DNA from: Proteromonas lacertae
Lineage: Eukaryota
Direction: 5' to 3'
Assembly: GCA_002245135.1 (NCBI GenBank)
Contig: NGBS01000295.1
Coordinates: 124,001-188,000 of the forward strand
Length of the DNA: 64,000 bases
The notes beneath the pieces are model-generated. The model had not been told where the DNA came from. It did no database searches and worked only from the letters and a program-made list of their open reading frames with translations. Shown in pieces: positions 2,443 to 55,151 of this stretch. Both the position numbers and the translations under genes were made by a program. Position 1 is the first letter of the stretch. Each line of letters opens with the position of its first letter.

Positions 2443-5400
2443 ATGTCCTTGTTAGCATCAGTAGCTAAAAAGGGTATATAGCAATGATATTTAAATAATA
2501 GATGATATAAATAGTTTTATGAAATCAATAGCTGAAGATAATGATCAACCTCAACAACAAGACTTGTGTTGGTATGATAAAATAGCTCAATTAGATGGCT
2601 TTATCTGATTTATTTTACTGGAAGCAGAGTGAAAGTGGTTTCAAAGAATCCAAGGATATAATGAAGAGTTGGGGTGATGAATCAAAATGGTTAATATGGC
2701 TAAAAAGTACAGAAACGCATCTTCAAGAGAAAAAAGAATTAAGTGTATTATTTCTGTAAAAATATACTTTGCTATAGAAATTGAAAGAAGATTGTTTATA
2801 TTCTCAGCAATTAGTAGATGAAGATGAATATTTATCCGATTTAATCAATTCAAATTATGATCCAGTAGAAAGAGAAAGAACAAAACACGAATTTAGTAAA
2901 ACAAAAGAAAAAATCTTTTCAACAGCTGTTTGTGAATATTCAGATATATGTAAAGAAGAAAGAGAAGAAACAGCTAAAAGATTAATCAGTTGGACTAATG
3001 TAGAATCTGAATTTGAATTTGGAAATAAAATATTGAATGATTTGAATGGTTTATTTGAATGTAATATAGAGAACATAATGAAATATCCACCATCATTATC
3101 AACAGAAAAACAAACAATGACATTATCATTAGATAATATCTCCTAGCTAATTTATCACTCAATCATGGAAACTATATGGTAATGTATATTCCACCAGAAT
3201 CACAATGTGATAATAATAATAATAATAATAATGAATGGGAAGTTGTGTATGGAACAAATGAAATAACGCCAATCAATCGATGTGATTGTCCATTTGGATA
3301 TGAAATGATATTAACAGCTAAATCTGCATTGTTAGACATAAATGATGATATTCAGATGATATATGAAATTATATCTCATTTGATAGATGGAATTCATCCA
3401 TCTGGTCGTTCTTTATATGAGATGATAATGGATAAACCAGAAGAATCCTCAAATTTATTAAAAGAAAGATTGAGTAGTTTGGGTTATATTGGAATTTATG
3501 AATTTGAATTGGGAAAATATGAGTATAGAAGAAAGTGAAACAAAATGTATTATATATATTATCTTTTACTATTGTTTTATGCATAGACTACAAGCTTAGT
3601 AAATACTATCGAATTTAGAGTAAGAAAGTATGGCAGATATTACTTTGAAATACATCCAGGTGTAACTGAAACAAATGATTGGATGGTAGGATTGACATGG
3701 AAAAAAGATGAAGTATGTAATTATTAATTATTTATTTTATTAACATAGACATGTCTATTTCCAGGATGTAATGAATATTCAATTGGATTATCATCAATGG
3801 GTAAAATATGGTTTAATAATACTAATAAAGTATAATTTTTCTGTATTTATTATTATGTATTAAATAGTATTATTGTCCAGTTTTAAGAAATGTAATGGTT
3901 GTTGGAATGTTGGTTGATCTTAATTTAGGATATATTTCATTTATTATTGATGGACATGATTATGTATAATAATAATAATAATAAATTATGTGATTATATT
4001 TATTTAGGGTTCTAGTATTGGATGGGGAAGTGAAACATTTTCAATTAAAGAAAGAGACATTCATATTGAAGCGTTAAGAGGTAAAAGTGTTTATCCAGTA
4101 TTTGCATTGAAAGGAGAAGTTAATTCAAGACTCAATACACCACAAACTCCAATGAGAGGTAGTGATGAAATTAATAAGAAAAATAGATATGGAAATCCAG
4201 AGTTTATAACTGAAGCAAGGTATTTCTATTATTATTATTATTATTATTGTAATGTTAATCTAGAACTGCTATGGATGAAAGTAAATTTCCAAGACTTTCA
4301 ATAAATTTTGGACTTTTTGATTTTATCTATTCTCCTACTGATGCTTATAGTTTTGATTATTATTTAGAGTTAAAGAAAGATATTGTATAAGATATATGTT
4401 TTATTTATTTGATGATAGGATAATCATGAAATAGTGAATAACCACATAACCAATTACATCCAAGAAATTGATGATAAATATAATACAAAACCAAAAGAGG
4501 ATAGTTTATATCGTTTTAAAACTTTAGTCAGTAAAATGCATTACACTAAGGAATCATTTTCTCATTTCCCATCAGAATCAGTTTTATTCTTCAATGCAGT
4601 TTATCTAATGAAAAGAGCAATGCAAAAGTTCAAACTCAGGAAAATAAAGAATTCAAAATATAAAATAAATAATATGGCTGCTATCAAAATTCAAAGATAT
4701 TATAAAAGAAATCATCAGAATGCTGTTCGTCATTATAATTATTATTCTACAAAGATTCAAAAGATATGGAAAGGATATAATGTTAGGTTGCATACTCACT
4801 TGTTATTGAAATATAGGATAACTGAAGAGAAATTAACAAAATTTGTGATAATTATGCAAAAGTATATATTGTATTTAAAGTAATTTATAATGTATAATAT
4901 AATAGAATTATTCGTGGGTTTTTGAGTAGAAGGTATTATAAGAGACAAATGAAAATATTGACTGAAGTTACAGCTTATATTCTTAAAGCAGTTATTAGAA
5001 TTCAAAGAAACTATAGAATGTACAAGAATAAGAAAAGAATTATTAACAATTATAGAATATATAGAAATATAATAAAGATACAGAGTATATGGAGGATGTA
5101 TAAACTGTCAAAAGAATTTAAAAGAAACAAATGAGAAAGAATATGAAAAACTAAAGAAACTAGGAAAAGATATTGTTAGAATTTCAAAATGGTCAAAGTA
5201 TTTAATTTATTTTGTTTATATATTATTATTAATAGATGTGCTGTTCAGATTCAAAGAATATGGAGAGGATATGATGATCGAACATTTGCTAGATTAAAAC
5301 GCAAACATTATATTAGAGCATCAAAGATTATATGGAAAGCATGGAGAACTCATAAATTATATAAATATGTTAATGGTCATTATGATTATGATAGTTCTCG

Positions 5401-23469: not shown

Positions 23470-25028
23470 TTATTTTTCATTTACTTTGTACAATGTAGAA
23501 AACCATAAAATCTTTGTAAAATGAGCTAAACATTCAGATTTGGCTAAATTTCTTGGAGAATTAGTTGCTTTGAAATAGGCTATGCAATTATCCCATATAG
23601 TTTGCAAATCAGAATAAATATCACCAACAGAAGTATATATTTGTGATGAAAACTTATAAATAACATCTTCATAAAATACTGGTTCATTTATTAGTTGATA
23701 ATACTCATCATTATCAGGTGATTCTCTGTGTAATATTTGAAAATCACAAAGTGTAAATAATAAAAATATAATATCTTTACATGCTTCAAACAAAGGCGAA
23801 ACGTAATGATTCTGTAATTTTCTCAACATAAATGGGGGGTTTGAAAACATTTTCACACAATTTGGACATACCCATTTTCTATCAACATCATCATTATTCC
23901 TTAAGCAATTTTCATGATAAGACAAAGGACATGTGTCACATAGGAGTAGTCTACCACCATCAGTGCAAACAATACACTTAGAAATATGTTGATCAGATGC
24001 TAATGCTTCATACTCTCCGTTGGTAACATCATATCCATGAATTAATGCACTTTTACTAATTGGCATTCTTTTGAATCTATAGTGTCTGTTTCTTATTAAA
24101 TAATATATTCTATCATTGTTACTGGTTATATTATTATTATTAGCTGTTTCTATTAACTCCAAGTCTTCACTATTATTATTATTATTATTATTATCAGATG
24201 ATGATAATTCCATTTCATTATTCATTGATTTTATAGATTCATTTACTTTTGGTTTCTTTCTTGGATTTGCATTGTTCTTTATCTTTATTTCTAATACTTC
24301 ATTATCTTCATCATTATCATCATCATCAGAAGATGATGATGATGATGAATGTTTTATTATTGTATCTTCAGATAGTTTTCTTACTGATAAATGTCTAGGT
24401 TGAGATTTTGCTATACGATCTATTTAAATTATATATATATATATATATTATACAATGAGCTTTTCCTTCTTCTAATTTTGAATATTCTCCTGTAACAACT
24501 GTTTCCTCTGAATCTGACATTGGAGTAGTTATAGATGATAATAAACGAGGATCATTTGGGTTTAATGAACAATAATTACATTGACAAATATGCAAGCATG
24601 ATGGACATTTCTATATAATAATAATAATGTTTAAGTGTATATAGAAATACAGCAATATGAGGTAGATGAGATGTATTTTGAGGAATGTATTGTTTAAAAT
24701 GATTCAAACAGTATTGATGACTTGGTCTATAGAAAGGACAACATGAATAAACCTAAGGATGATATAAATATATTTATACTTCTCCTAATTTTTGACAAAC
24801 ATGACAACTAGATCTACAAATTCTCCTTATAGAAACATATGGTATTGAATTATATATTTGTCTATGTTTAGTTTGTTGGCAAAGAGAGGACTGATCAGTT
24901 ATACATTCCTCATCTTCATAAATGTTAGTACCCTATTTCTATTATCTCATATAGTCGCATACTATTCTCTCATAATTAAGGTTACCATCAATTGGGTTTG
25001 ATAAATCTGTCAGATCAATTACATCCAT
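23470..25028 (-). CDS. Chromatin protein: N-terminal Cys-rich finger (zf-4CXXC_R1-like), PHD finger and bromodomain
   Basis: SSCHVCQK..HQYCLNH..KCPSCLHICQCNYC; PHD CIVCTDGGRLLLCDTCPLSYHENCL..WVCPNC; bromodomain EYYQLINEP..YTSVGDIYSDLQTIWDNCIAY. Confidence 0.85.
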
Positions 25029-25085: not shown

Positions 25086-25849
25086 ATGGAAAGTACAACA
25101 CATAATAATCCAAATCCATCACCTACGTCTTTTACAAGACGTAAGGTTGGTGTTCCACCAGTATATTAATGTATTAATTTGCAGATCGTAAAACCCTTTA
25201 TATATGGTTCAATATCACAATATTTGAATAAAAGAGCAACAGATTCTAATACACATGAATGGACTGGTATTTTTTACTGTATTATATGTATTTTTTAGCT
25301 TATGTAAGAGGTGTTGATGGAGAAGATTTATCTTATTTCATTAAGCAAGTCCATTTCATTCTTCACAGTTCATTTGCAAACAATGATAGAGTAGTTGCAC
25401 AACATCCTTTCGAATTAAGTGCAACAGGATGGGGAGAATTTGAAATGAAGATACGAGTTGTATTTAGAGATCCAACAGAAAGGCCAGTGGAGTTTTCTCA
25501 TTTCTTAAGACTTTATCCTCCAGGTCCATTAAAAGCATTATCAGATCAGCCAGTTGTATCTGAATTTTATGATGAATTTATTTTTAATGAACCTACTGAA
25601 GGTTTTTATGAAATATTGACAAAGTCAAATGTTCAATATCCACCAATTTTATCACCATATGTCAAATTTTACACAAAGTTTTCCGAAGAAGCTCAATTGA
25701 ATCAATTAATGTCAATCAATAACTATGTTGAAGAACAAATTAAGTGTATATATGACTATCACCTATTATTTATAGTATTAAGAACAAAATTGTTGGAGGT
25801 GGATGAGCGAGAGAAAAGGATAAATGAAAATCATAATATTATTAAATAA
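25086..25849 (+). CDS. YAF9: YEATS-domain protein (Yaf9/GAS41-like)
   Basis: KPFIYGS..THEWT|YVRG..DLSYFIKQVHFILHSSF..HPFELSATGWGEFE..HFLRLYP..VVSEFYDEFIFNEP, followed by a C-terminal coiled coil. Confidence 0.92.
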
Positions 25850-26071: not shown

Positions 26072-29000
26072 CTAAAAATTACTATTAACTGTACTACTTG
26101 TCTTAGTAGGCTCTAATTTAAAAGTCTCAATTGGATCTAAGTGTGGAGGAGTTCTAGCTTCACACATATTATTGGCTGTTGTTGTATTTTTTCTATATTT
26201 TGTATAACTGGAAGAAACAGTTCTAGCAGAATCGTGAGGAGAATTTGCTCTTGAATACTTCGATGTTTGACTTGTATTGAAAATGTTTAGATGAGAATCC
26301 ATTCTTGTTGGAGATGTATTATTAGGGTTAAATGGATTAATACGACGAGATGAATGGGGAGTTTTTGATGTTACTACATAATTCACATCATTCTTTGATG
26401 ATTTAATGTCTTTATAACTCAACACTTTCATTGGTGAACTAGATGGAGCAAATTGATAAGTTGGTGTTGGAGAAGTTACTTTGCTTGATGCTGTTGCTGA
26501 TAACATATGAGCAAATGCACTTCCTATAATTTGTGTATTCTGCATAACAATTGTATCATGCGTTTCACAGTCATTTCCTTTTTCAAAATGATCTTGTGTT
26601 GGCATTGTATCTGATGAAGATCCTTCTCCTGATCCATTATTCTCGTAGAAATCGTAGAATTTTGGCACATATATAATTAAGGATTCTATTAATACACCAC
26701 CCAATATCACTATTTAATTATAAAATAAAAATGCATATGTAATACTTAACATCCTGAACCATACAACACCTCCAATACTATCTTTAAATAACGCAAAATC
26801 AAATGGTATTGTAACTGCTCCAATAAATAGAATTGTTCCAATTGATAAAGATAACATTATTGATTGATTGAATTCCTTTTGTATATCTCTTGATTCCCAC
26901 GATATTATAATCCCATATAATAGCATTATTACTATTATACTAATATCAACAATTCTATTCAAAAATATAACAAATCACAATAATATACTCAAATACCACA
27001 TTCGATTCACATTGGTATAAGTTTTTGTGTAATGTTAAATCTGGTGTTGTTGTATCTGTTATAACCACTTTTGTTGGAGCTGATATTTCCCAAATTATGT
27101 TGAATATGATATGCAAACCAACAATAACTAAAATAATTTGTGATAAAAATCTATTTGTTATGGTTCTCTATTCATGATAATTTATATATATATATATATA
27201 TATACCTTTTTCAATGCAGGATTTCTGAATAATGCTTTCAACCTCCAACACTTTGTAATTAACACTGCATATAGCAACACTATGCCATTTCCTATTCCCC
27301 ATACTCTAAATCTACATACCCATGCATTCTTTGGTACTGCTGTTATTGCAAATGTTGAAGCAATAATAATCCACAATGCAATCATAGCTACTATTAAGAA
27401 ATTTAATGAGGATCTTCTAACTGTTGGCTTATTTCTATTCATTACTAAAACTACAGCTACAATAATCAACATCAATGTCTCTATAATAGCAATAATAAGT
27501 GTTGTGGCTTTAAGAGATACAGAATTCTCATATATTTCATAATATGGACCGAAATTACACTCACCTCCAAAATCATATGGTTCTAAAAATGATACGTTTG
27601 ATGATGTAGGGAAAATCAACTGAGATTCTCCTGAATCTGACATTCTGTAGAGATATGTTGATCTTGCCATATAATTGTTTGATCTTAATATAGCTCTTCC
27701 TGATGGCAACATTACTGTTTTATTTTGTATTGTCATTAGTATATGTCTAATAGTATATCTACCTTTTTCTAAATATCTGTCACTTTGATACTGCATGACT
27801 GATATTGCTAATAGCATTGCAGAATAAACCAATTCTATTCCTTCATTTAAATTCTTTTTACCTATCAATTTATCAACATCTGGTTGAAATCCCATTGTAT
27901 CTGTCGATGATATATCAGACATAAAAGAACTTACAAGATAAACATTATCCAATGAAGTAATAGTTTCTTTATCTGTTGCATATACATCGACATTATAATA
28001 AATCTGTCTGAATTTGTAGGTGTTATATCCTTTTTTCCTAAATAAAGGATAGAAAAATTTCAATTCGTATGAAGATAAAGTGTTTATTATAAGCAATTGC
28101 TTCTGTATATAGTTATCTAAATAATCAGTCATATTCTTTACTGAAAATGATATATTATACTCATCATACATCAATGTAAAAATTGGTATTTTAACCTTAT
28201 AATCATTATGAATTACATTCATTACTATTTCTTTCTCAGCAATACCATAACTTGATTTTGAATGGATTAGCACATAGTAATCAAAATCACTTTCTTTAAA
28301 ATAACTCAACAGTATTTTAGTCTTTTGATATGTTGTGCTTGATAATGTTATTAACTGTTCGTTACATCTATTATCATTACTTTCACCAGTATAAAACAAT
28401 AATTTCTTCCATTTATCTAAATACACTAATACAGCATCTCTACATTTAGTTGAACTACAACCGATAAAACAAAATAAACCTTCATCAGTTTCTATACTTC
28501 TTTGAATATCATAATTTTTAAGATCTTCTAACCTATATATTGGATTAACAATATAATATTCTGGTAAGGTATATCTATAGTTAAATCTTTGGAAATACAA
28601 CTCAGTATACAATGTCAATAACCTTGGAGAAGATTCAGTTCTATTATCTGAACTATATATCAAAGGCATAGTAACAAAACCTCTTGAACCACCATCTGTC
28701 ACATCACATACATTATTTTGTACATCTGAATTAAGTGAATTGCTATGATGATCTGGTATTGAAATATCAGGAGAAACCATATCAGCTATAAATGTAGCCA
28801 TCATGATCAACTCTCACCATATACAAGTATCTTTCTAAATACAAATCAATATCTATCTTTATATATCCTCCATGTGTATATAGTGATATTCCACTTTCTT
28901 CTTTGAAGAAAAAATACTGTGATATAGAATTGTCAGAATACTGATATGCATATGATAATAATTGGACTATTATATAAGCTGTATCAACAACTGCACTTAG

Positions 29001-32000
29001 TGATAGAAAATCACCAAATAAATTATCCACTATTTTTGATATTACTTCAGTTTTTGAAGTTAGATGACTATACATATTTGATTTTAATTCAGTAAATGAC
29101 GGTGTAATTGTATATATTGGACTTTTTCCATAGTATTGATTCAATTTTGTTGTTGTTTCATCTAAATAATTTGCATATATAGTAATGTTTTCATTATCCA
29201 AATAATGATTCACATCTAAATCTTTTAGTACACTTTCCACACAATTCAAAAATGCAAAATAAATAATACATTTAGTATTTGCACATAACGACAAAACAGT
29301 TCGAAAATATCTTAAAATTTGACTTTCCACATCTACAATTTTTGTGCATGTTGGCAATTGGATAATTCTTTCCACTTTGTATCCATAAGATACTAATGAT
29401 GTTATCATATAATTAGTTAACTCAATAGAAAATTCTGCTTCATTATTTATTATAAATACCAATCCTTCAAAAGCAGCTGTGTGTAGAATAAACATCTGTT
29501 TCAATTGGTTAAATGATGGTCCAACTGATATAACATTTTCACTACAAATAAAACCAGATGATAATGATAGAAAGTAGAATATTACATCTGTTCTATTCGT
29601 TTCAGAAACTAAAGAAATGAAAATATTCTTTTCTTCCAATCTCAAACCACCAACAAATATTTTTATTTCATTCTCTTGTAGTAGTCTTCTTATCGTGTCA
29701 GTATATATTTGATCATTTGAATCAGTATTATATAACATTAATTGAAAGAAAGGAAAAGAAGGATCATTATCTTCATAATGATGTAGTAATCCAGACATTA
29801 TTTCAAAGATCATTCTTCCTTTTGCACCTCTTTTACCAGTGAATGGAAGAACTAAAGCAATTGGTATTGTTGGAGAATGGAACAATACATCTCCATTTTC
29901 TTTATCAACTGACCAATCACAAAAAACATTGTCATATTCATAATTAACTCCAGGATAATATGGACTTGGAGATAAATTATGCATTGCATTAATAATCATG
30001 TGATATTTCCCATCTTTGTTATAATACAAGAATAAATCATGTGTCATATGATGATTTGTATTGAAATGAATTCCTTCTTCTGTTTCAATTCGATCATTTG
30101 GGTAAAAAACAGTTTTATATATGGCATTTCTTAAATCATCAAAATTATAATCTGTTAGTGTCAACAATGCTCTCATATAAATATTTACGGAATAATACAA
30201 ATATAGCATATCAGCATTTACGAAAATAGAATATGGAATTCTATTCTCTACTTTTTCTGAAAATATTTTAAAATTAACTGAAGATGAATTGTAGCTTCTT
30301 ACAAATGAAAATTCTTTAAAATGAGTTTTTGACATATCATTTGTATTATCAACTCTCATATCAAAATAATATAAGAGAAACTTCTTTTTAATCTTATCAA
30401 ATGCATCGTAATATTCTTCTAAATCGTCAAAATGTAAATCAACTAATATATTCACAACAGAATAGCTTTTATATTCTTCAGCATCATTTTCAGCATATTT
30501 TGTATAATTCTCGCCTCTATGACATGCTATAAGCTTGATATTAAAAAATCTCTTCTTTAACACTCTATAGAATGCTTGTACTTCAGGTCCATTTGTTTGA
30601 GTGTATAGTATATAATAAGAATCTTTCAGAGGATTATGATTAAGATTAAATGTCGATGTAAACATTCGATAAGCCATATGAGAATAAATACCAGCATAAA
30701 AAACATTATGATGACATGCTTCACCTGATGATGGTGAAACAAAAAATATTAATTTCTCTTTCTTTTCACATAATTCTAATATTTTAAATCTTTGATCATA
30801 TAATGAAACATAATCACCTGCAAAGAATACAGCAAATGTATTCTCAACATCCATTGCATCCTCTATCTCTTTTGAACTGTTTAATGCAAAGAAGTTAAAC
30901 TCTCTTGTTCCTATTTTATAAGTCGATTTTGGAAAGACTATTGAAATAAATAAATAATATATATATATATATATACATTCTTCATTTAGTTCATTAACTG
31001 TCATATCCAATATATCTATAATATTTGGTGTATTATTATAAATCAACAAAACATTAAGTAATATATATTCATGTTTTTCTACACTTTTCCCATCGAAATA
31101 ACACATATAACCAGGTTCATGATACATATTAAATATTTCAGGCATAATATATTCATTATAATTAGTTACAATTTCAAAATTATACTGAGATTTCATATAA
31201 GCCATTTGGAATATCCAAGTGGGAGAATTCTGTTTTGTATATTTCAATCCATCCATCACTTTAATATCGTCTTTCATTGTTCTATTATACAACTGTTTTG
31301 GAGTAGCTATTTTATTGGTTTCTTTATATATCATTTGTATTTGATATAAAAACAAAGTAATTGTACCATAGGCTATAATTTCTCTCAGCGAAAGTCTATC
31401 AATAGCTCCATATTGAGCTAACATTTTGTATAGTGAAAATGTCTTATCATCAGTCATAACAGAATGACCTAGAAAGTAAAACTTTGAGGCAGAAACTAAT
31501 ATTTTCTTTGCATCATCAAAAAATGGAGAAAAAATAGGATAAGTATCAAAATTCCAATTCTTTTCATCCAACATATTCAATATTTGAACAAATAAATCAT
31601 TTGGACATAAGAATATCAATACTCTACGTTTTTTATTTGAATTGAAATACTTCTCCAAATAAACATAATCCACTGAAGTTTTTAAACTAGATACATTATA
31701 TATATAATTACTTTCTAAGATTGAAACTAACACATTCTTATAAGATACATATGGTTCAAATGTATTATAAAAGATATGATAATCTATATAACCTTTATTT
31801 AAGAAAAAGTTTATGGGAGTAGAAAATAATTGATTTGGCAAACCTCCTCCTATAACAACATTATCAAAACAACTACTTCCAACAAAATGACCTTCATAAT
31901 ATAGACATCTTATCATGACCAATTAATTCTACTATTCTATTTAGTTCTAAAGTAGAATTTCCTGCGAATATATAATCACAATGATAGTTATATAATGCAG

Positions 32001-35000
32001 TATCAATACAATATTCATAATTAGATTTACAGTCATATCACATGATACAATATTCTGATATTAGAATTTGAATTCTCATTAAAATAATCAAACAGTGACA
32101 TTTCAGCAACTCCTACATAATAATCATGTGATGCTCCAACACTTGAAAATGAATGTAATAATAATACTTCTACAATTTCAACATCTAAATTCCATATAGC
32201 CTGTGTTTCATAAGAGATTGTCATTGTAAATGGTTGAATTGATTTATATAACAAATGTAATGACATGTCCTTAGAAAGAGAACCACAATAAAGAATATAT
32301 ATATTTTGTGTCATAAAGTTATTTCTATCTATTGACTGTAATCCTGTAGCTGTCTCAACCTTTAAGCTTTTTATAGTACTTACTATATCAGATTTAACAA
32401 ATGAATTGGCTTTCTTTAAACCTTCAACAAAGAATAACGCAGAATTATAAATATTAATTGAATATTGAAATAACTGATTATTTGTGGTATTAAAATACTG
32501 TTTCATATTATTCGACAGCATTTTAAAAACTGAAGTATTTAAATTCGAATGTGATACTGTAAAAAAGAATAGATTGCCAGTGAAATGAATTTCTTCATCT
32601 GTTTCAATAATATGCTCATCGTAATGTCCAAAATGTATAATATTCCAATTTCGATAATTTAATTTCTTCAGACTTCTTAAATAATTATATAAATATTCAT
32701 CATTTAACAGCGAAATTACTGTACCATTAAAATACACAAAATGATTTAACATTATTCGATTAACATTATCCAAATCACTATCTTTTTTTATTCTAAAAAT
32801 CTGATATACAATATATCCATATTCTTTAAGTTGATCCATAAACATTAAAGCTGTTTCTTTAACATATGGCTGATCACCAATCAATATATAAACAGGAGAA
32901 TAACAATTATGAATAATCCATCTACAACAGAACGGAATTAAAGCTTTCATATAAACATCAAATGTAAATTGATTATCCAAATCAACACTACTTTCATACA
33001 CTGTTCCAATATTCATCGCAATAACATCTTCAAATTGAGGTAATCTTGCTGAATTACATGTATAGCCGAATATGAAATGAAGTCCCTTTTCTTTTATTGA
33101 TCTTTTCTATCTTCTCCCATTCATTCTTGAGTTTCTTCTTCAGATATTGGGAATAGAATTGTATCAAGGTATGTATTATTCACCAATATTCCTCTATTAT
33201 ATTCTTGAATTGGTAATAAAAACATAGAAATTAGTAGTGATTGATAAGTACCAATCGTTTTTGAACAATAAATATATCCAATTTCATATATCCTTTCTTC
33301 TTTTTCTTTTATTTCTTCTTCTTCACCATCATCATCAATACCAGAACATCCAGTATAATATCCATGTGCAATTAAATTACTTGCATTATATGGACCTTTC
33401 AATTCAACTTTAGTTACTGTATTACCATCATTTTCTAATTTCAATAAATAATTTCTATAAGATAACAATCTCTGTCTCAACAAAATACTTTCACCATGAG
33501 GTAATTGAAAAGTATGCTTATCATCAAATAATGGTAATATACTGGAAGGTAGATATGAAAATACCTGTTTTGTAGTAAGATCTAATATCCTTATTGCTAC
33601 AAATAACAGTTCATGTCTTGCTAGATCAAAATCACCTTCTCCTAGCATTCCTTCTATCCACATCATAAAATTTCTATTTTCATAACTATTAGCTGCTTGA
33701 GAATAATGAGTTGTAGCATAAACATTTGGTAAAGATTTTATGTTTTTCAAAGTATTAACATCTGTTAAAAGGAATATATGTTTCTCTAACGCAGTCATTA
33801 CCTCTCTTCCAACATTAAACAGTTTTACCTCATCTGAATTCAATGAGATTAACACCAATCCTCCATTTGGCATATTTGTCAAAACATGATTTAATAATGC
33901 ATATGTATAAGTCTCCTCAGATAAAAGAACATTTCTCATATCTAAAAAACTCTTCACTGATACACCAATAAATTGTAAATTTCTCACACAATAGTCTTTA
34001 ATTGAAACACTAAATCGATTATCACTATTATAAACAACTATTAAATCATTCATATTTTGAGTATTCCAATAACTAATACTTGGATCTACTATCTGATATA
34101 TATTTGGACCAACTGTTACTCTAACAAAAATATAAAAATACATTTAAAAATACATATTTGAAAAACATTGTTTTTCATCATGGTTGAGTCTTATATTCCA
34201 CAACAACATATCATTTTTCATTAACTTGTTATTAAACTCTTTCTTTAAATCCAAATTGATAATCAAATGCAAATATATGAGTGACATTAGATTCTATCAT
34301 ATCATCAATGAGTGATTCTAAGTTGACATTTCCATCAAATACATATTCTGCGATAACTTCATTTTCACCTAAAATATCATAGCTCTTATAATATAACATT
34401 ACTGCTGTTTCATAGAACAACAGAAAGTTATGTGATGGATATGGTTCTGTATATTTCTGAACTGCAATCTTATGTTTTCTTACAGCTGCTAGTATATTTT
34501 CTTCAGTACAATCACATCTGACTTCAGCAAATGGAATTTTTACTTGTGGAAATGGTAATGGCTCAGAAATAACATTAACTACTTCTCTTCCATTATATTT
34601 ACTAATGAACCAATTCTTTGAGATGAAATTATTCTTTCCTATATATGAAATGCCATCAATGAATGATCGAAATGTTGTTGAATACAAAACACTATACATT
34701 TGTTCATTATCTAAAGTAGAAAGTTGAGACAGAGTAACTCTCTTAAATACAATAGAGTTAAAGAAATTTGTCAATGTTGATACTTCTGAATAAGTTAGAC
34801 GATTATAATATATTCCCATTTCTCTTATAAAAGTGGTAAAATCAGATACTGGTTTAACATTATCAAAATATGGATATGTTCCCATAAACACTGCATTTTT
34901 ATACAACAATGGATCTAATGACATATTATCAAAACGATAGTCATTCAATGTTGTTACAGAATAACCATTCAAATTCTTTGATCTAATCAATTTTAATATA

Positions 35001-38000
35001 CTTCTAAATTCATCAGCATTGAAAAATGTATAAATCAAACCTCCATTTGGCATTTTTTCATGAATATAATCAACTACATCTTCAAGTGTATGACTATTAC
35101 AACATTCAATTTCTCTATCTTCAATATGTTCTTCTTTAAAACTTCTTTTTAATTCCTTTACATTCTCAGCAGCACTATTCCAAAAATCATTTCCTTCTTG
35201 AAGTATAATAAACACATCTCCAAATATTAACATATTCTTCATATAAGCTATTGGTCCATATGTTGATTTATAATTACCAAAATAAAAGACTAAATTCGAA
35301 CATACAGCAGTATGTGTATCAAAACCAACATAAATTGGAATATTGTAATAATCTGCTATTGGAATTAAAAGATTCAATTGATCAACACTATAATAACAAA
35401 TACATAAACATATAAATAATATAAATAAATACTCTTCTGATGAATATATTGTTATTACATGATGCTTAACTATAAAATCTTCAACATCATCAACTAATTC
35501 ATCATGTTTATTAGTATAATCCTTACCTAAAACATATGGTATAAACAGGCATTCATTAACTCCGTGATATATTGATATGTAGTTTATCATTGCTGTTAGA
35601 TATTCCAGTGTATCTTTATACTTAATTTCATCCAATACAATTAAATTGAAACATATACTCATCACAACCATTTCTGTTGATTCTATTTAAACATATAAAT
35701 AAATGAAATAATGTAAATACCTATATCATCAACAAAAGTAAACTGATATCCAGCTTCAAAGAATGCATAAAATGGTGGATTCATTACTACATATTTACCA
35801 CCATAAACTACACTATCATCATCATTTGCAGCTAACTGTAATATATTTATATTTGACATTAGATAATTATCACTATTGTACATTATAGTTCCTGCTATTC
35901 CTTCAATAGTTTTATGTTTTAATAACACAGATAAAGCTGTAATGTTACTTACACCAATTGATTGAATTACATTACCAATTAATTTTGTAATATAATAAGG
36001 AAATACAAATACATTATTGACTGTAATTGAATTATAGTATCTATCATTCTGTTTATCTTCAAAATCAAAATCTGTATATTTTGTTGCTTTACTAAAGTAA
36101 TAACCAAATATAAAAAGTCCATCATACATCTGAGGGGTTAAATATTCCTTTACAATCATTTCATCCAACGTTGTACTAAAAACTACAAACTTATGTTGTT
36201 GATTAATTGGATATAAACATTTCAAAAACCGAATTGAATTTTGTCTTGTCATAACCAATAAGATATTACCACCTTGTTGTGAGTATTCACTTAATAAACC
36301 CTGTACAGTTTCTTCAGTTATAGAGTCAAGGTAGTAGTAACCTTTAAATGGAAAATCATAATTCTTTCTATATATTAAAGTATTCAATATTGACTCATTG
36401 GCATAAAGCGAACCATCATATATAATAAAAGGATTATATAACAGTCTCTGATATTGTAAACTATCCAAAATAGCGAATATTGTATATCCAGCATTAAAAA
36501 GATATGAATAACTAGATGCACCTTCTTGTGGTGCAATATGAATAGACAATACTTTCTTATTCTTCAACTCCTTAATCAATATATTTTTGTAATCACTATT
36601 ATCATTAAAAAATATCATATCACAATGATATAGATTGACCAATTTCTCCAAACATTCTTTAAATTCAATTTCATTAGTATATGTCAATGAATAATAGAAT
36701 AATCTCAATTTCCTACCCTTGTCGTAGAGATTAACATTTGTTCTAAATATAGAATATTGAATTGCTTCTCTTGTCACAATTGTCATTTTTCCTGTATAAC
36801 AGTTAATATTGAATATCAAACCAACTTTTATTACATTCGCTACATTTATAGTCTTTTGACTTGTATAAGAAACATCATACAACTGTGTAGCTAAATGATA
36901 ATCAGTTGGTTGAAGTGTAGGATCAATTGTTTGAAACTTATCAAATATTGTTTCATTGGTTACTTTATTGAGAGTAGTAATAGCCAATGATTTGTATATA
37001 TATTGTGAATCTAATAACTTATATCTACCATACTTTGTTGATTCAGTTAATGTTGTGATTATATCCTTCAATATTGATAATTTATATACGTACAATGTTT
37101 TATATTGTTCATATACACTGTCTAGTATGTAATGCATATAATATCTATTCAATATAATATAATATATAAATATATAAATACACTGACATTGAAACATCAT
37201 CTATTATTTGATCTGGTAATTGATTTTTAATTTCATTCACCATTAGATCACTGTTAATCATTGTAGAGACACAATAAATGTGATTACTATCAGGATTATT
37301 TAGATAATATAAATCTCTAGTGTCGCAATTACCCATATTATATAAATTCCAGTTGTTCAAGTTTCCTTTCATCTATAATATCGTTTAGTAACTGAATATT
37401 TCTTTCTGTAAATGGTAATAAATTGATTATCAAATTGGGAGTTCTAAATACTGATGAAAATGATGAAATAGGTGTATTTTGTATTATTTGCTGATATTCA
37501 GATGTTAATAATTTACTTGAATTATATACTTCATATTCTACATTATATTGCGTTAATTGTGGTTCAATGAAAAGCTTATATATATTTACAGTGCTATCAT
37601 CGATCCATATGTGTATTTTTTTGTATACTAAGCATAATGGTGCAATACCTATTAAAATATATCATAGAATAGCAAATACTAGTCATGTAGACTGAATTAG
37701 GTTGTGACATGAAATACAAACTAGATGAAAAAGATAATGTCCTTCTAGAAAATGCAAAAAAATGTATATTGAGTGATTTGATCATAGAAACTACTTCATT
37801 TTGAACAACTTCATAGGCAAAGATTATAGCAACATTGACATGCACATTACCTGTTAAATACTTTTCCAAAGCAGTTGTATTATCTTTTCCATCATACACA
37901 AAGGGAGTAAGAATACTATAGTTTAAATTATTAGGATGACCTAAATCCATAAATACATCATGCACTATTCCACGTCTTATATACATATATTTATCAAAAT

Positions 38001-38094
38001 CACCATTGTCGGATAATATGTCTATCTCACCAACATTTATAATATCTCCCAAACAATAAATAATAATGAAAATATATATTACAAATATCCTCAT
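26072..38094 (-). CDS. Giant class C (7tm_3, GABA-B-like) GPCR with about nine tandem type-1 periplasmic-binding/Venus flytrap domains; broken by short introns and about 8 apparent +1 frameshifts
   Basis: Signal peptide MRIFVIYIFIIIYCLG. Repeated PBP1 motifs, e.g. IPIALVLPFTG, FIGCSSTKCRDAVLVYLDKWKKLLFY, VISVGPSFNQ, LPSGRAILRSNNY. 7TM region with RNKPTVRRSS, CRFRVW..LITKCWRL..F, SRDIQKEFNQS and IYVPKF. S/T-rich cytoplasmic tail. Confidence 0.85.
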
Positions 38095-48652: not shown

Positions 48653-49777
48653 TTAAAACGGCCTTTTTACTATCATAACAGCTCTCTTTTGACTCATTGG
48701 AGGAGTTACCATCTGTCTACTCGATATAGCTGGAGAAGCACCCTGTCTTTGGCTAATCGAAGGTAAAGTCAGATTTGGTAATTTATTGTTATTGCTTCTT
48801 AATCCTAATATTTGAAGAATTAAACTAGTTAATCCATCACTCCCAGCTTTTATATTATATAAAAATATATTACCATTCTCAAGTATAAACTTAATTCTAG
48901 TATCTTCTAAATCAGGAATGCTATTGGTAGCTTGTTTGATCCTCCAAGCAGATGCTATTGTATCAGCTGTTCTTGCACTTCCTTCTATTATAATTAAAGG
49001 CATTTTAGCTTTTACTGCATTAACTGCTTCATTTACAGTTATTGAACCACCATTCACTAATATACCACACGATTTTACTGTTTGCATTAAATATTTTATT
49101 ACTCCAAACATTGTACTTGTTTCTCCACCCCATTCACTGGATTTTACTAATACAAAATGACTATGATGAGGTTCTAAATCAGTTAATTCATCAAAATTTA
49201 CTCCATTTTCATTATCATATATTTTACCAGGATATTTCACTAAATTCTGAGGACAAATTCCAATCAGTTTCATCTTTCTCATTAATTTACCTTTTCCTCT
49301 ACCAACTATCTGCATTATTCCACTGTCTGTACCCCCATCGATCATTACAGCACCACTTTCTTTACTTGCATTCATCACGCCTTGATCTATTAAACTACGC
49401 AATATTGGCATTAAAGTAGGATTTAAACCACTTGCACCACCAAAGGTACAGATTAAATAATTGATATGGCTGACTTTTATTTGGAAAGAATTTAATATTT
49501 TTTCACCTATTAAAAGATCTTCATCATCTTTCAATGGTGGTTCAGTCCATATTGCAATTGATTTTTCTCTATTATTATTAGGAAATACTATTGAAAATGG
49601 TTCATATTCTTCATTGATTCGTGGAGATTGGAAATTGACTGATCTTTTACCAATATTTCCTATATCACTGGTTGAAGATGGACTAGAAGGCCTTGCTGAA
49701 GATACAAATCCATCACTTGTAGCTACACTCAACATATACTCACTTTTCATTCTAGATATACCTGGTTCTAATAACAT
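48653..49777 (-). CDS. SLOG domain of the TRPM/LSDAT type; probably the C-terminus of the upstream NACHT-WD40 gene
   Basis: FGGASG, GAVMIDGGTDSGIMQIVG, LIGICP, LEPHHSHFVLV..WGGET, ILVNGG..EAVNAV..PLIIIEGSARTAD. No channel TM segments follow. Confidence 0.85.
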   Translation of the reverse strand: MLLEPGISRMKSEYMLSVATSDGFVSSARPSSPSSTSDIGNIGKRSVNFQSPRINEEYEPFSIVFPNNNREKSIAIWTEPPLKDDEDLLIGEKILNSFQIKVSHINYLICTFGGASGLNPTLMPILRSLIDQGVMNASKESGAVMIDGGTDSGIMQIVGRGKGKLMRKMKLIGICPQNLVKYPGKIYDNENGVNFDELTDLEPHHSHFVLVKSSEWGGETSTMFGVIKYLMQTVKSCGILVNGGSITVNEAVNAVKAKMPLIIIEGSARTADTIASAWRIKQATNSIPDLEDTRIKFILENGNIFLYNIKAGSDGLTSLILQILGLRSNNNKLPNLTLPSISQRQGASPAISSRQMVTPPMSQKRAVMIVKRPF

Positions 49778-49784
49778 TGAGTTT

Positions 49785-52700
49785 TTATTTGAATCTGCTT
49801 TGTTTTATTACTGGAGTGATTAATTCACTAAGTGAAGTTCTTTTCTTTATTATTGAAGATCTTCTTCTTTCATTATTACTATTGCTATTATTAATTGCAT
49901 TATTATCTTCACTTTTGTGTCTGGGAGTTACCATAGGTGATGATAATTTCAGTGGAGAAGGACGAATTGATTCACTTCCATTTCTATTATTCACACTCTT
50001 TCTATTTCCCATTTTAGATTCATTTACAGTATTTACTTTTGATTCATTTAATTTTTGTTCATTCAATGGAGGTGGAGGTGCTGATATTGGATTATTACCA
50101 TTCGCATTATTACTATTACTATCATTATTTATTCCTTTCTTCTCTGTAATTGCTGGACTTGGTGTTGGTTTACAAGATTCGTTGAAATTCTCAGCTCTAT
50201 ATTCTTCAATGATTTGAGGCTTTTTCAATTTACTCTTTTCTACAGCAGGTAATCTATTCACTTCATCACTGTCTTTGTATTTATCTAAATGTTGTACTTT
50301 AAGTATATATAATTTACCAGTTGTATCTCCACAACCAATTACACTTTCATCAGCCTTTTCTTTTTCACTATAAATATCACTACAAGAAGCATCACCAAAT
50401 GTAATAAAACTACCAATTATTGTACCTTTATTATCACCACTTATACTAATAGCATATATTGTTTTATCTGATAATGAAGAAACAACATAATCACAATTAT
50501 AACTAATACTACCACTCAATGGTTCAGCAGAAGGATTTAAATCATCAGGGAAAATTACTGGAGCTTCAATCTTATGATATCTATCATAGAATTTAACAGA
50601 TCTATCTTTAGAGATTGCTACAATTCTACTATCACTCTTCATTAACCTAATTCCCATTATTCTATCTTTACATCCACTCAATTGCATAATTAACTTCAAA
50701 TTCTTATCCCACACCTTAATAAATCCTTTTATATCAGCTGTAACTGTTCTTTGATCATTAGTACAGCGAATTGAAGAGATTTCTTCATCATGACTGAATT
50801 CTTCGTGATCTTGAATATCCATTTGTTTACCATCAGCAATACTGAACTTTCTTAATTGACCATCTTGATAACCAGCTACAATGTAATTATTATCACAACT
50901 TACTTCAATACAAGTCAAACCATATACACCATCACTTAAACCACTTAATACACCAGCAGCTCCAAAATCAGTTTCAATCATCATATAATGTTTAAACTTA
51001 TCAAAATACCACAACATGATATTACCAGCTTTATCAGCAGTCATAATAGAAGCATCATTATTAAAGAATAAAGCACCATTCACAGAATCAACATGACCAA
51101 TTAAAACTGCTAATTCTACACCATCTGGAACAGTCCATATTTTAGCAGTTAAATCTGTAGAGCCAGTAATACAATATTTACCATTATAACTAAATCTAAT
51201 AGTATTAATTGAAGAAGTATGTCTACCAACTGGACTTGCTTCTATATCATCCATTATATCTCGATTAGCTTGTCTATTTAATTTACGTCTTTGAGCTGGA
51301 GTGATTGAATCAGGTAATGCAACAATTCTTTCAACTGCAGCACTAGTTGGATGCATTAATAACAATGGTGAAAATGTAATATCCCATCTCTTTATTGTAC
51401 CATCATTAGATGATGTTAATATCTGCTTTCCCTCATTAGCAAATTGTGCGCAAGTAATAATATCACTATGACCAACAATACTGAATATCTTTTCTTTTGT
51501 TCTTGTATTCCATATATATACTTTATTATCTTTACCACAAGATGCTATTACATCATCACCTGGACTGTAAGTTAGATATGTTAATGAATCAGAATGTGCA
51601 TTGATTGTATCAGCAATAATTGGACCACTCTTTTGTAATTCATCTGTTGAAGGCAATTCCCAATATTTAATTGTTTTATCATCACTTCCACTGATCATAT
51701 TCCAACCATGATGACTGAACGCTAAAGCTTGAATAGCTTGAGAATGACCATGATATTTGACTAATTCAACCATACCTAAGCTTGGTGTTCTAACATCCCA
51801 AAATATGATATTTCCATCACTACATCCTGTTGCTAATACACTTGAATCTTCAGTAAATGCTGCAGATAATGCTGGTGAAGACATCCAATCTTTAATCCAT
51901 AATTCAACAAATTCTAATTCTTCTGTCTCAGTTAATCTCAATGAGAATAATCTCAAAGACATATCCAATGATCCACTAACAACAGTCCATTTCTTAAGTG
52001 TAGAATTTGGTGTAAATAATGCAAATGTAACGGATCGGACATGATCTGTACAAATCCCAAGTCTAGTTCCACCAATAGCATCCCATACAATTATACTATT
52101 ATCTTTACTAGCTGATAATAATTTAGCACCATCAATATCATAACTTAATGAGGTAATTTCATCACTATGTCCTCCAGCAATCATTTCACGAATCAATTCA
52201 CCTGTTATACTGTCAATTACTCTCAATGTACCATCACAACAACCAACTGTTAATGTTAAACCATCAGGATTTAAGCCAATACAAGATACTTTACTATTAA
52301 AACCAGCAAATTCAGCTACTAATTTATTTTCTGTTGGTTTGTTCAAGAAATCAATCCATGAGATTGGAGCCCAGCCATCTTGAATATATCTCAAAGCAGC
52401 AACATATGGTGCAGATGTATCTGGTTGATTCAAGGCAATTTGGAATATCTGTTCAGGATTGGCTTGTAATTTTGGCTTTTGACTGGAAATAAATATTAAA
52501 AACTCTGATAACCAACCAAATAGATGATCTTTATCTGTATGATATTGATTTAATACATCTTTCATCAATGCATAATTGGAATCTTTGAAAAATGATTGCG
52601 CATCTTGATAATCTCTCATTAAAGCTTCAATTGAAAAAACACCAAGCTTACATCGAGCTTTGATGAAATTTAAATTTCCTAATGTTTCTTGTAATCCTTG

Positions 52701-55151
52701 TAAATCATAAGATTGGAAGTAAAAATATGGTAATTCCTTTAAAGCATTACTATATTCACCATCCCATGATAAATCACCTTTTGGATCAGCTTTTAGTTTA
52801 TAATAACTCGCTAAATTACCACAAATATGAATTCTCATTTTACTACCTCTTAAATATCTATTCTTAACAGCAACAGCTAATTGTCCATGAAAGAATCCTA
52901 AAGTTCCTTCACCATCTTCACCTTGTGGTCTTAAATACAATTCCAATGATCTAAACAATCGAGCCCAAATGGCTTGAGGTAAAACATCTTTACCAGGTGG
53001 TGCTAATAGTTCTAATAATTCAGCTTCTTTCATTCCATGTCTACTACACTCAATATAACTTAGTGCATATTTTACTAATGTGCTACCTAAATATAAGGTT
53101 GGATCTGTATCACCTTCTATTTCATCCAAATTAATAAAGTTATTGTTAGTGTTATTACCACTATCAGAGGTGAAATCTTTAGCCCATGCTTCCATATCTC
53201 TTTCTACACGATCTAATACATCTGCAAATAGTTTAGGTATTGTAGAAGGCATTGCATTAATTTTATTATCAATTTCTATACCATCCATTCCATATAAACC
53301 GCAGAATCTCAATTCTTCACATGCTATAAGTAAATATAATGGTTTTGAACTATCTCTTTTATTCATTAATATTTCCATTTGACTGGGTGTTAGTTTCTTT
53401 CGATAAGTACTTAAATGTGCTCTAACGATTTCTTCTCTTTCCTCTAAACTCAATGCACTGACTATTAATTCAGGAGGATGTCTTTCTCTTGCTCTCAATG
53501 ACTTTAATACTATAATACCAGAACCTTCTTCTGTAGTGGATATAATACATCTTATATTTGGTGGAAAAACAACTGGTAACCAATCCATACCATGTGCGCC
53601 AAACGTAGAATCAAATTGATTAACACCATCCATAACGATTAACATCTTTTGATCAGAATCAACTAATACCTTTGAAAGACTTTGCAATGCTGCAAAGAAT
53701 GCATTTTTGATTGATACATAATCTCTAGCTTCAGGAATACATTCTAATTTATATTTATTAGCTATTTCTTCAATAAATCTTGATAATGTAAACCTTATAT
53801 CAGTTGATTTTGGACTTGCACCAACTACATGTGGTAATACAAACGTATTAGGATGAGAGATTAAATATCTCTGTGCAAATGCAGTAACTACTGAAGATTT
53901 ACCACTACCTGGATCACCTACTACTACTAATGGAAGAATACCACCTTCACTATTCAGTCTTCCCTTCTTTAATGATCCTTCAGCATGTAATTCTAGATTC
54001 TCTAATAGTTTTTGCCTTCCTATGAAGTTATTGTATCTATATTCTATAAAATGAGTATGGTATGATCTTTCTTCGTCTAAAGGAGTAACGATTTTGTTTT
54101 GCTTAGGGAATTCAAATGCAATTGCTTCATATAAATCATCTAATAACATTTTACTAAACTCTTCTAATTGTTTCACATGTGGTTTTCCTTCTTCATCTTT
54201 ACCACCATATACACAATTATATTCTCTTACTTGACAATAAGGCTATATATATATATATATATAATAAAATAATAATACATGATTCTTTATTTCACTAATC
54301 AATTTATCTTTCTTAGCAGCAGCTTCTGAACCTGGAAAACAATCTACAAATATATTTCTCTCATCTGGATCAGTGATTTGAGATAAAAAACTTGGATTTC
54401 TTAAATAACAGTAAGCATGAGTAGGATGAAAAGGACATCGTAAAAATCCATAATATACTTCCATTGCTGTGATTGAATTACCTGGTTCAAAGTCTTTAAC
54501 CCACTCATATTGAGGTGCATTGGATACTCGGTAATTTGGTGGAATCCAACCGTAACGATTACCTGATAACATTACAAAAAATGGCCTTGATCGATCTATC
54601 TCTATTAGACAGTGCTCCAAGGCTCCAAGACCTTCATCAGAAGTATCTTCTTTTGTCAGTCCCCAACGGAGATCTATTGGTACTACTCGAATATTTCTGT
54701 CTTTTAATCTTTGGTTTAACTCAGGAAAAACTGCACGAGTTATTATATCTCTTTCACCATGCATATCGTTAAATGTACTTGATATAAATACAGAGCATGT
54801 TCTAATAGCACCTTCACGAAGATTTCCCCACCAAAGTCCTCTCAAACTATCCCATTCTTCTCTCTAGAAAATAGATATTACAGATATTGAATAATTAAAT
54901 ACTTGCATTTGTAATCTCTCTCTTTCTTCCCTATCTCTTTCCAATTTTTCATTCCTTGCTTTATTATTTTTCTTCTTTCCTTTTTTCTGTAATGCTTTTT
55001 TCTAAACAATAAAAACAAATCAGATACATCAAACATATTCTTTTTATCTATTTAAATATAATTATATAAAAATATATACTTATATCCACTAATATTAGGC
55101 TTTTTATGAGCTGAATCCCTAATGCAATAAAGATAAAGAAAATATATACAT
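49785..55151 (-). CDS. DUF4062 (TIR-like)-NACHT-WD40 protein (TEP1/NWD-like STAND NTPase, no TROVE domain)
   Basis: VFISSTFNDMHGERD..IDLRWG..CLIEID..GNRYGWIP..SITAME (DUF4062); Walker A VVGDPGSGKS; Walker B LIVMDGVNQF; KPLYL; more than 10 WD40 repeats (GHSDEITSL..SASKDNSIIVWD). The 5' exons are tentative. Confidence 0.9.

Follow-up and report, generated by a model that had tools for sequence, protein, structure and literature searches.

Does the minus strand of one AT-rich stretch of Proteromonas lacertae DNA encode a single giant receptor? The stretch (the window: 64,000 nucleotides [nt] of contig NGBS01000295.1, positions 124,001 to 188,000) is eukaryotic with short introns and has a GC content of 24-32% per 2 kb. 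An earlier note, made from the letters alone, had joined about nine minus-strand open reading frames (ORFs) into one protein of 3,800-3,900 residues, a G-protein-coupled receptor (GPCR) of class C with about nine tandem Venus flytrap domains. We found that ten exons read from 38094 to 26072 give one predicted frame of 3,894 residues with no internal stop (X at the breaks), in agreement with that estimate. Excision of nine GT-AG introns of 31-45 nt each leaves 11,692 nt, and this spliced sequence holds seven frame stops, each of which is cured by skipping one base. The predicted product has a hydrophobic N-terminus, nine flytrap units of the UrtA/AmiC type, a class C seven-transmembrane (7TM) domain and a Ser/Thr-rich tail, laid out as follows.

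26072..38094, minus strand: whole gene, 10 exons, predicted 3,894-residue class C GPCR (frame model; orthologue coverage 3,451/3,894)
38047..38094, minus strand: hydrophobic N-terminus, predicted signal peptide (hydropathy; orthologue P0010 has the same start)
26656..27520, minus strand: class C seven-helix domain (Pfam 7tm_3 in three collinear pieces; PDB matches to mGlu and GABA-B)
26072..26655, minus strand: cytoplasmic tail, 194 residues, 29% Ser/Thr (composition)

Assignment to class C begins with the membrane domain. Three ORFs in a row align with Pfam 7tm_3, covering its positions 6-104, 113-173 and 171-245, with a best E of 4e-13, above the cut-off. Alignment places the class C hallmarks, namely the cysteines of TM3 and extracellular loop 2, the TM3 K..R, the TM6 acid and the TM7 PK (residue list from PMC3727952). 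Hydropathy of the full protein gives hydrophobic stretches at residues 3-21 and 3456-3697 only, so the single 7TM domain placed earlier near 26650-27510 holds; the signal peptide proposed at 38094 coincides with residues 3-21 and is a prediction from hydropathy. The type I flytrap ectodomain of class C GPCRs is present in nine copies. The nine-cysteine domain of the mGlu/CaSR/taste subfamily is absent, unit 9 meeting TM1 with a single linker cysteine. The 7tm_3 match, the conserved residues and the PDB matches together support the predicted protein as one class C GPCR.

The nine units of the ectodomain are listed with their bit scores, which come from profiles built from relatives with the window protein and its orthologues excluded.

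36843..38046, minus strand: unit 1, most diverged flytrap (16 bits; hhalign P 84.7%, E 6.7e-6, 301 collinear columns)
35677..36840, minus strand: unit 2 flytrap (90 bits; top Foldseek matches of the orthologue's model are urea-binding proteins)
34498..35674, minus strand: unit 3 flytrap (74 bits; hhalign 98.8%)
33309..34495, minus strand: unit 4 flytrap (76 bits; hhalign 98.6%)
32194..33306, minus strand: unit 5 flytrap (80 bits; Pfam Peripla_BP_6 E 1.4e-5)
31076..32191, minus strand: unit 6 flytrap (89 bits; hhalign 99.2%)
29891..31073, minus strand: unit 7 flytrap (86 bits; Pfam Peripla_BP_5; fold model)
28696..29888, minus strand: unit 8 flytrap (137 bits; model aligns to UrtA 8HIC)
27526..28693, minus strand: unit 9, membrane-proximal flytrap, ending in the linker Cys before TM1 (135 bits; Pfam Peripla_BP_5 E 1.5e-9)

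These profiles detected nine consecutive domains, units 2-9 at 74-137 bits and unit 1 at 16 bits, against a maximum of 1.9 in 21 controls; the unit 1 result was reproduced in the orthologue P0010. The relatives behind the profiles had been gathered with an alignment of units 2-9, so that of the nine only unit 1 was scored without such selection. Profile-profile alignment with hhalign gave 98.6-99.7% for units 2-9 and 84.7% for unit 1, and the boundaries drawn earlier agree with ours to within about 60 nt. Identity among the nine units is 9-17%, as against 45-80% between each unit and its orthologues, and the repeat of about 1.1 kb reported earlier is visible to the family profile and not to self-BLAST of the window protein. 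Leave-one-out profiles gave each of units 3-9 a score that none of its roughly 300 shuffles reached; 4 of 300 shuffles matched the score of unit 2 and 59 of 300 that of unit 1. By itself Pfam recognizes, through Peripla_BP_5/6, the ORFs of units 5, 7/8 and 9 only, with the pieces of units 1-4 unmatched; phmmer of unit 9 against the PDB returned chance matches only, and NCBIfam had no match for the two window ORFs searched.

Fold models point the same way, although the alignments behind both jobs contained UrtA-like rows and their matches are therefore not independent. A model of units 7-8 reached a predicted local distance difference test score (pLDDT) of 76.7 and a predicted template modeling score (pTM) of 0.79, which suggests a defined packing between units, and its best matches were AmiC and UrtA. 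Unit 8 superposes on UrtA 8HIC over 338 residues (Z 34.4, root-mean-square deviation 2.6) and on the sweet-taste receptor with Z 29.5. The model of P0010 matched urea-binding proteins in unit 2, and its unit 1 had a pLDDT below 50. Profiles, hhalign and structural matches thus agree on the UrtA/AmiC affinity proposed in the earlier note, and units 2-9 are assigned, by profile and by the models of units 8 and 2, to the PBP1 fold closest to these proteins.

The architecture is not confined to this locus. Among the best 150 of 157 representatives of the family, 42 carry at least two units, 25 carry at least five, and in 17 a class C 7TM domain is combined with 2-9 units. The clearest case is P0007, an intron-free single ORF of 3,745 residues. 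Peripla_BP_5 and TIGR03407 (UrtA) each match it nine times and 7tm_3 matches in full; its PDB matches are UrtA and AmiC followed by GABA-B2. A shorter form with two units and a 7TM domain is P0115, which its source names as a hypothetical protein from the chytrid Phlyctochytrium bullatum. Based on the sequence evidence, we conclude that the predicted architecture is real and new among class C GPCRs; the wider family is apparently undescribed. Pfam readily overlooks such genes, since their introns are short and their divergence is deep.

We drew a quick tree, unrooted and with long branches, from 85 of the 156 domain rows. Units 6, 7 and 8 each fall beside their positional counterparts in paralogues P0036 and P0092 (support 0.98, 0.97 and 0.93), and unit 9 falls in a group of membrane-proximal units from several paralogues (support 0.95). 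Since position-specific units are common to paralogues, the tandem array of the earlier note stands with its nine units, as an old array and not a recent expansion. The conserved units of P0007, P0061 and P0115 sit among single-domain UrtA-like proteins, though a tree of this kind does not point to a donor. A scan with P0007 kept 80 of 422 loci, all single-unit ORFs lacking a 7TM domain. A search for same-length homologues gave no match, and a metagenome scan with the orthologue alignment gave no locus.

Several single-unit relatives were seen alongside. L001:3-1304 and the proteins P0034, P0048, P0065 and P0069 start with a hydrophobic stretch and carry near the C-terminus a Cys resembling that of the eukaryote-type linker. 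Three of them group, with weak support, beside the eukaryote-type P0020. A giant-virus metagenome contig holds an 83% relative of P0034, which hints that a host receptor was captured. In P0023, P0037 and P0111 two intact UrtA domains flank a middle with HEAT and NB-ARC or STAND-type matches. At L017:10001-18905, two separate UrtA-like ORFs occur within 9 kb of one metagenome contig.

What might nine flytraps on one chain do? We lean toward the reading that the product is a multi-solute sensor that relays through its nine flytraps. The outer units, with pockets re-tuned away from urea, would close on solutes; closure would be relayed along a chain of flytraps likely stapled by a cysteine pair; the membrane-proximal unit probably binds nothing and would pass the relay to the 7TM domain, which would then probably signal to a G protein. 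The relay is modeled by analogy on BvgS, whose distal flytraps are mobile and whose proximal flytraps are closed. Several results weigh against one intact, working receptor of this kind. The dependence of the fold models on UrtA-like rows and the low confidence of the P0010 unit 1 model, given above, are two of them; the others are taken up below, beside the explanations that they would favor.

The continuity of the gene was weighed against orthologous ORFs in other assemblies, which are 45-72% identical to the predicted protein: P0001 (55%) and P0002 (53%) over residues 2322-3553, P0003 (72%) over 880-2309, P0006 (70%) over 292-767, P0010 (46%) over 40-754, and P0004 (66%), P0005 (45%) and P0008 (65%). 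Together they span 3,451 of 3,894 residues, and their ends and starts coincide with intron positions. No single relative in this orthologue group spans nine units, however, and units 2 and 3 are linked by one predicted intron only, intron 3.

37649..37679, minus strand: intron 1, 31 nt (absent in P0010, which is collinear over the junction)
37145..37181, minus strand: intron 2, 37 nt (absent in P0010, collinear over the junction; P0006 starts here)
35683..35720, minus strand: intron 3, 38 nt (GT-AG, restores the frame; splice prediction alone; also the end point of P0006 and P0010)
35388..35432, minus strand: intron 4, 45 nt, in frame (open in the window ORF; P0073 reads through a matching insert)
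34121..34153, minus strand: intron 5, 33 nt (P0003 reads through a matching insert)
30938..30976, minus strand: intron 6, 39 nt, in frame (open in the window ORF; P0003-5 end and P0001-2 start here)
27168..27205, minus strand: intron 7, 38 nt (P0001-2 end here; 7tm_3 collinear)
26955..26988, minus strand: intron 8, 34 nt (GT-AG; 7tm_3 match; 7TM motif alignment)
26710..26745, minus strand: intron 9, 36 nt (GT-AG; 7TM motif alignment)

Because intron 3 is spanned by no relative's protein and both P0006 and P0010 stop there, the locus could be two or more genes, with a secreted protein of units 1-2 beside a seven-unit receptor. We regard this as very improbable: the 38-nt AT-rich GT-AG element restores the frame and is too small for a promoter, and hydropathy found no hydrophobic leader downstream of it. 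We therefore predict a single gene, pieces of which are conserved in related genomes. Its short-intron style may resemble that of Blastocystis-like stramenopiles; the 3' motif of that style was not enriched (4 seen versus 5.6 expected).

The seven one-base breaks raise a separate doubt, whether the gene still works in this genome.

37340..37372, minus strand: break 1, one extra base (crossed gap-free by P0010)
34232..34293, minus strand: break 2, one extra base (P0003, P0008 and P0038 read through)
33056..33179, minus strand: breaks 3 and 4, one extra base each (P0003, P0004 and P0005 read through)
32033..32041, minus strand: break 5, one extra base (P0003, P0004 and P0005 read through)
31894..31922, minus strand: break 6, one extra base (P0003, P0004 and P0005 read through)
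28782..28813, minus strand: break 7, one extra base (P0001 and P0002 read through)

Because orthologues cross all seven gap-free within 12 residues, the breaks are most likely assembly errors. Of the joints described earlier, the short introns are thus borne out, while the single-base slips, present in the window and absent in orthologues, do not belong to the gene itself. RNA editing or programmed +1 frameshifting at these sites would account for all seven shifting in the same direction; we find this scarcely credible, with orthologues that have none of the seven and no motif common to the sites. A young pseudogene in the window genome, functional in relatives, is a more substantial alternative, yet an improbable one. 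It would fit seven breaks in 11.7 kb, somewhat denser than in neighboring genes: a simple gene model counts 6 in 10,956 coding bases inside the locus and 8 (6 insertions and 2 deletions) in 34,687 outside (p 0.095, or 0.059 with all seven). It would also fit the position of the best-scoring extra bases, 6 of 7 of which lie outside homopolymer runs, the result on which homopolymer over-calling was rejected as the cause of the breaks. All seven breaks are single insertions, however (1 in 128 if both directions are equally likely), there are zero nonsense codons, and other window genes carry breaks of the same kind. In four of five triplets the window protein is not faster-changing (42 vs 53, 77 vs 95, 71 vs 67 and 32 vs 37); the fifth is lopsided, at 315 vs 63 sites, and is most simply accounted for by P0001 and P0002 being closer to each other, which leaves four valid triplets with no rate acceleration.

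Further one-base breaks occur in the window at 810 and 1010 (minus strand), 5090-5130 and 6120 (plus strand) and 11461 (minus strand), in Hsp70-like, IQ-motif, RCC1 and other genes. One break outside the locus splits an RCC1 repeat with Pfam matches on both sides, and the break in the Hsp70-like gene has a Pfam match on one side only. Their spread across the window suggests an under-polished assembly.

The pockets bear on what the units bind. The urea site of UrtA comprises eight conserved residues (PMC10392092), which we placed by motif spacing. Window units 1-9 keep 0, 2, 1, 1, 2, 1, 0, 0 and 1 of the eight, so urea binding in the manner of UrtA is improbable for this protein. By the same count P0007 has all 8 of 8 in five of its nine units, which makes it a candidate urea-sensing GPCR. 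Across P0007, P0061 and P0115 the membrane-proximal unit keeps 2, 1 and 2 of the eight, and the outer units up to 8, 8 and 6. The family likely began as urea sensors. More speculatively, and with doubts that outweigh our confidence, we suggest that it arose when bacterial UrtA was fused to a class C 7TM domain and multiplied up to nine times, with P0007-like members as multi-site urea receptors and the window lineage as a one-chain chemical panel, several units of which, each with its own new ligand, would act on the one 7TM domain by long-range mechanical relay.

The pockets also bear on an explanation that we consider unlikely but worth weight, in which the gene is real but its array serves chiefly as a rigid antenna, or as a stalk for adhesion or protein binding, and most or all units would bind no small molecule. 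The loss of urea residues from the window units suits it, as do the 29 N-glycosylation sequons across the nine units. Pocket columns are hardly more conserved among orthologues than the rest (107/171, 63%, versus 4,227/7,294, 58%), and they stand out only in units 5, 6 and 8 (74-78% versus 58-64%). That excess in three units itself speaks against a mere spacer, together with the pockets that are intact in several units at once in the family member P0007 and the position-specific identity of units across paralogues, which exceeds what a spacer needs.

The putative staple of the relay pairs one cysteine in the first lobe with one in the inter-unit linker. Both are present in 50 of the 59 scorable eukaryote-type units, with neither in 3 and one only in 6 (Fisher p 0.0096, with 20 units skipped and kinship ignored); neither is present in 46 of 56 single-domain relatives. 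In the window protein units 3, 4 and 6-9 have both, and both are absent in unit 2 and, by eye, in units 1 and 5. The C..N(V/I)..G motif that the earlier note saw in most units is present in those six and absent from 1, 2 and 5. The last cysteine adjoins TM1 across the family. We infer a disulfide between the pair.

What is known of class C activation comes from receptors with a single flytrap in each chain. Members with 2, 3, 5, 6, 7 and 9 units form a natural series on which one could test how ligand closure far from the membrane can drive the 7TM domain, whether the effects of the units are additive, gating or cooperative, and how a single chain evolves specificity for new ligands.

Genes next to the receptor are unrelated to it: a PHD-bromodomain gene at 23470-25000 (minus strand), and a YEATS gene at 25259-25849 (plus strand) that ends about 220 nt from the receptor stop. 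At 48653-55036 (minus strand) a long WD40 protein and a TRPM-type SLOG domain seem to be joined across a break of one base near 49800; the SLOG domain scores highest with the prokaryotic model.

How does this receptor compare with known systems? Class C GPCRs (mGluR, GABA-B, CaSR) normally carry a single flytrap. The window protein has in common with GABA-B and mGlu a 7TM domain with conserved cysteines, the TM3 K..R, TM6 acid and TM7 PK, and a type I flytrap, and like GABA-B it lacks the nine-cysteine domain. It differs in having nine flytraps in a 3,450-residue ectodomain in place of one, and in units of the UrtA/AmiC type (Peripla_BP_5) in place of the ANF_receptor type. The earlier note knew of no description of such an architecture, and a tandem-flytrap class C protein was likewise not found in the literature searched, mostly the main text of open papers; two-domain chytrid forms may stand in the figures or supplements of fungal surveys. 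A term search of the main text of two Blastocystis genome papers found no mention of GPCRs. Outside the animals, class C GPCRs from chytrids, gut fungi, diatoms and Dictyostelium do combine a 7TM domain with diverse bacterial-type binding domains, as here, and their N-termini reach 1,667, 1,600 and 730 residues (PMC3251606, PMC5168858, PMC3727952, PMC10445921). The available portions of those surveys name BMP, OpuAC, LysR, SBP_bac_1 and ANF domains and leave UrtA-type domains and tandem arrays unmentioned; that of PMC12965686 describes a single glycosylphosphatidylinositol-anchored flytrap. UrtA (TIGR03407) and AmiC are the best structural matches of the window models, and the relatives P0007 and P0061 pass the UrtA cut-off, but UrtA and AmiC are single soluble bacterial domains and the window units have lost most of the urea site. 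The flytraps of the sensor kinase BvgS are of the type II fold. BvgS nevertheless offers the closest likeness for the proposed relay, with tandem flytraps of which the membrane-distal is mobile and the membrane-proximal closed, straining the membrane helices (PMC4352136); it differs in being bacterial and in having two domains and a histidine kinase output.

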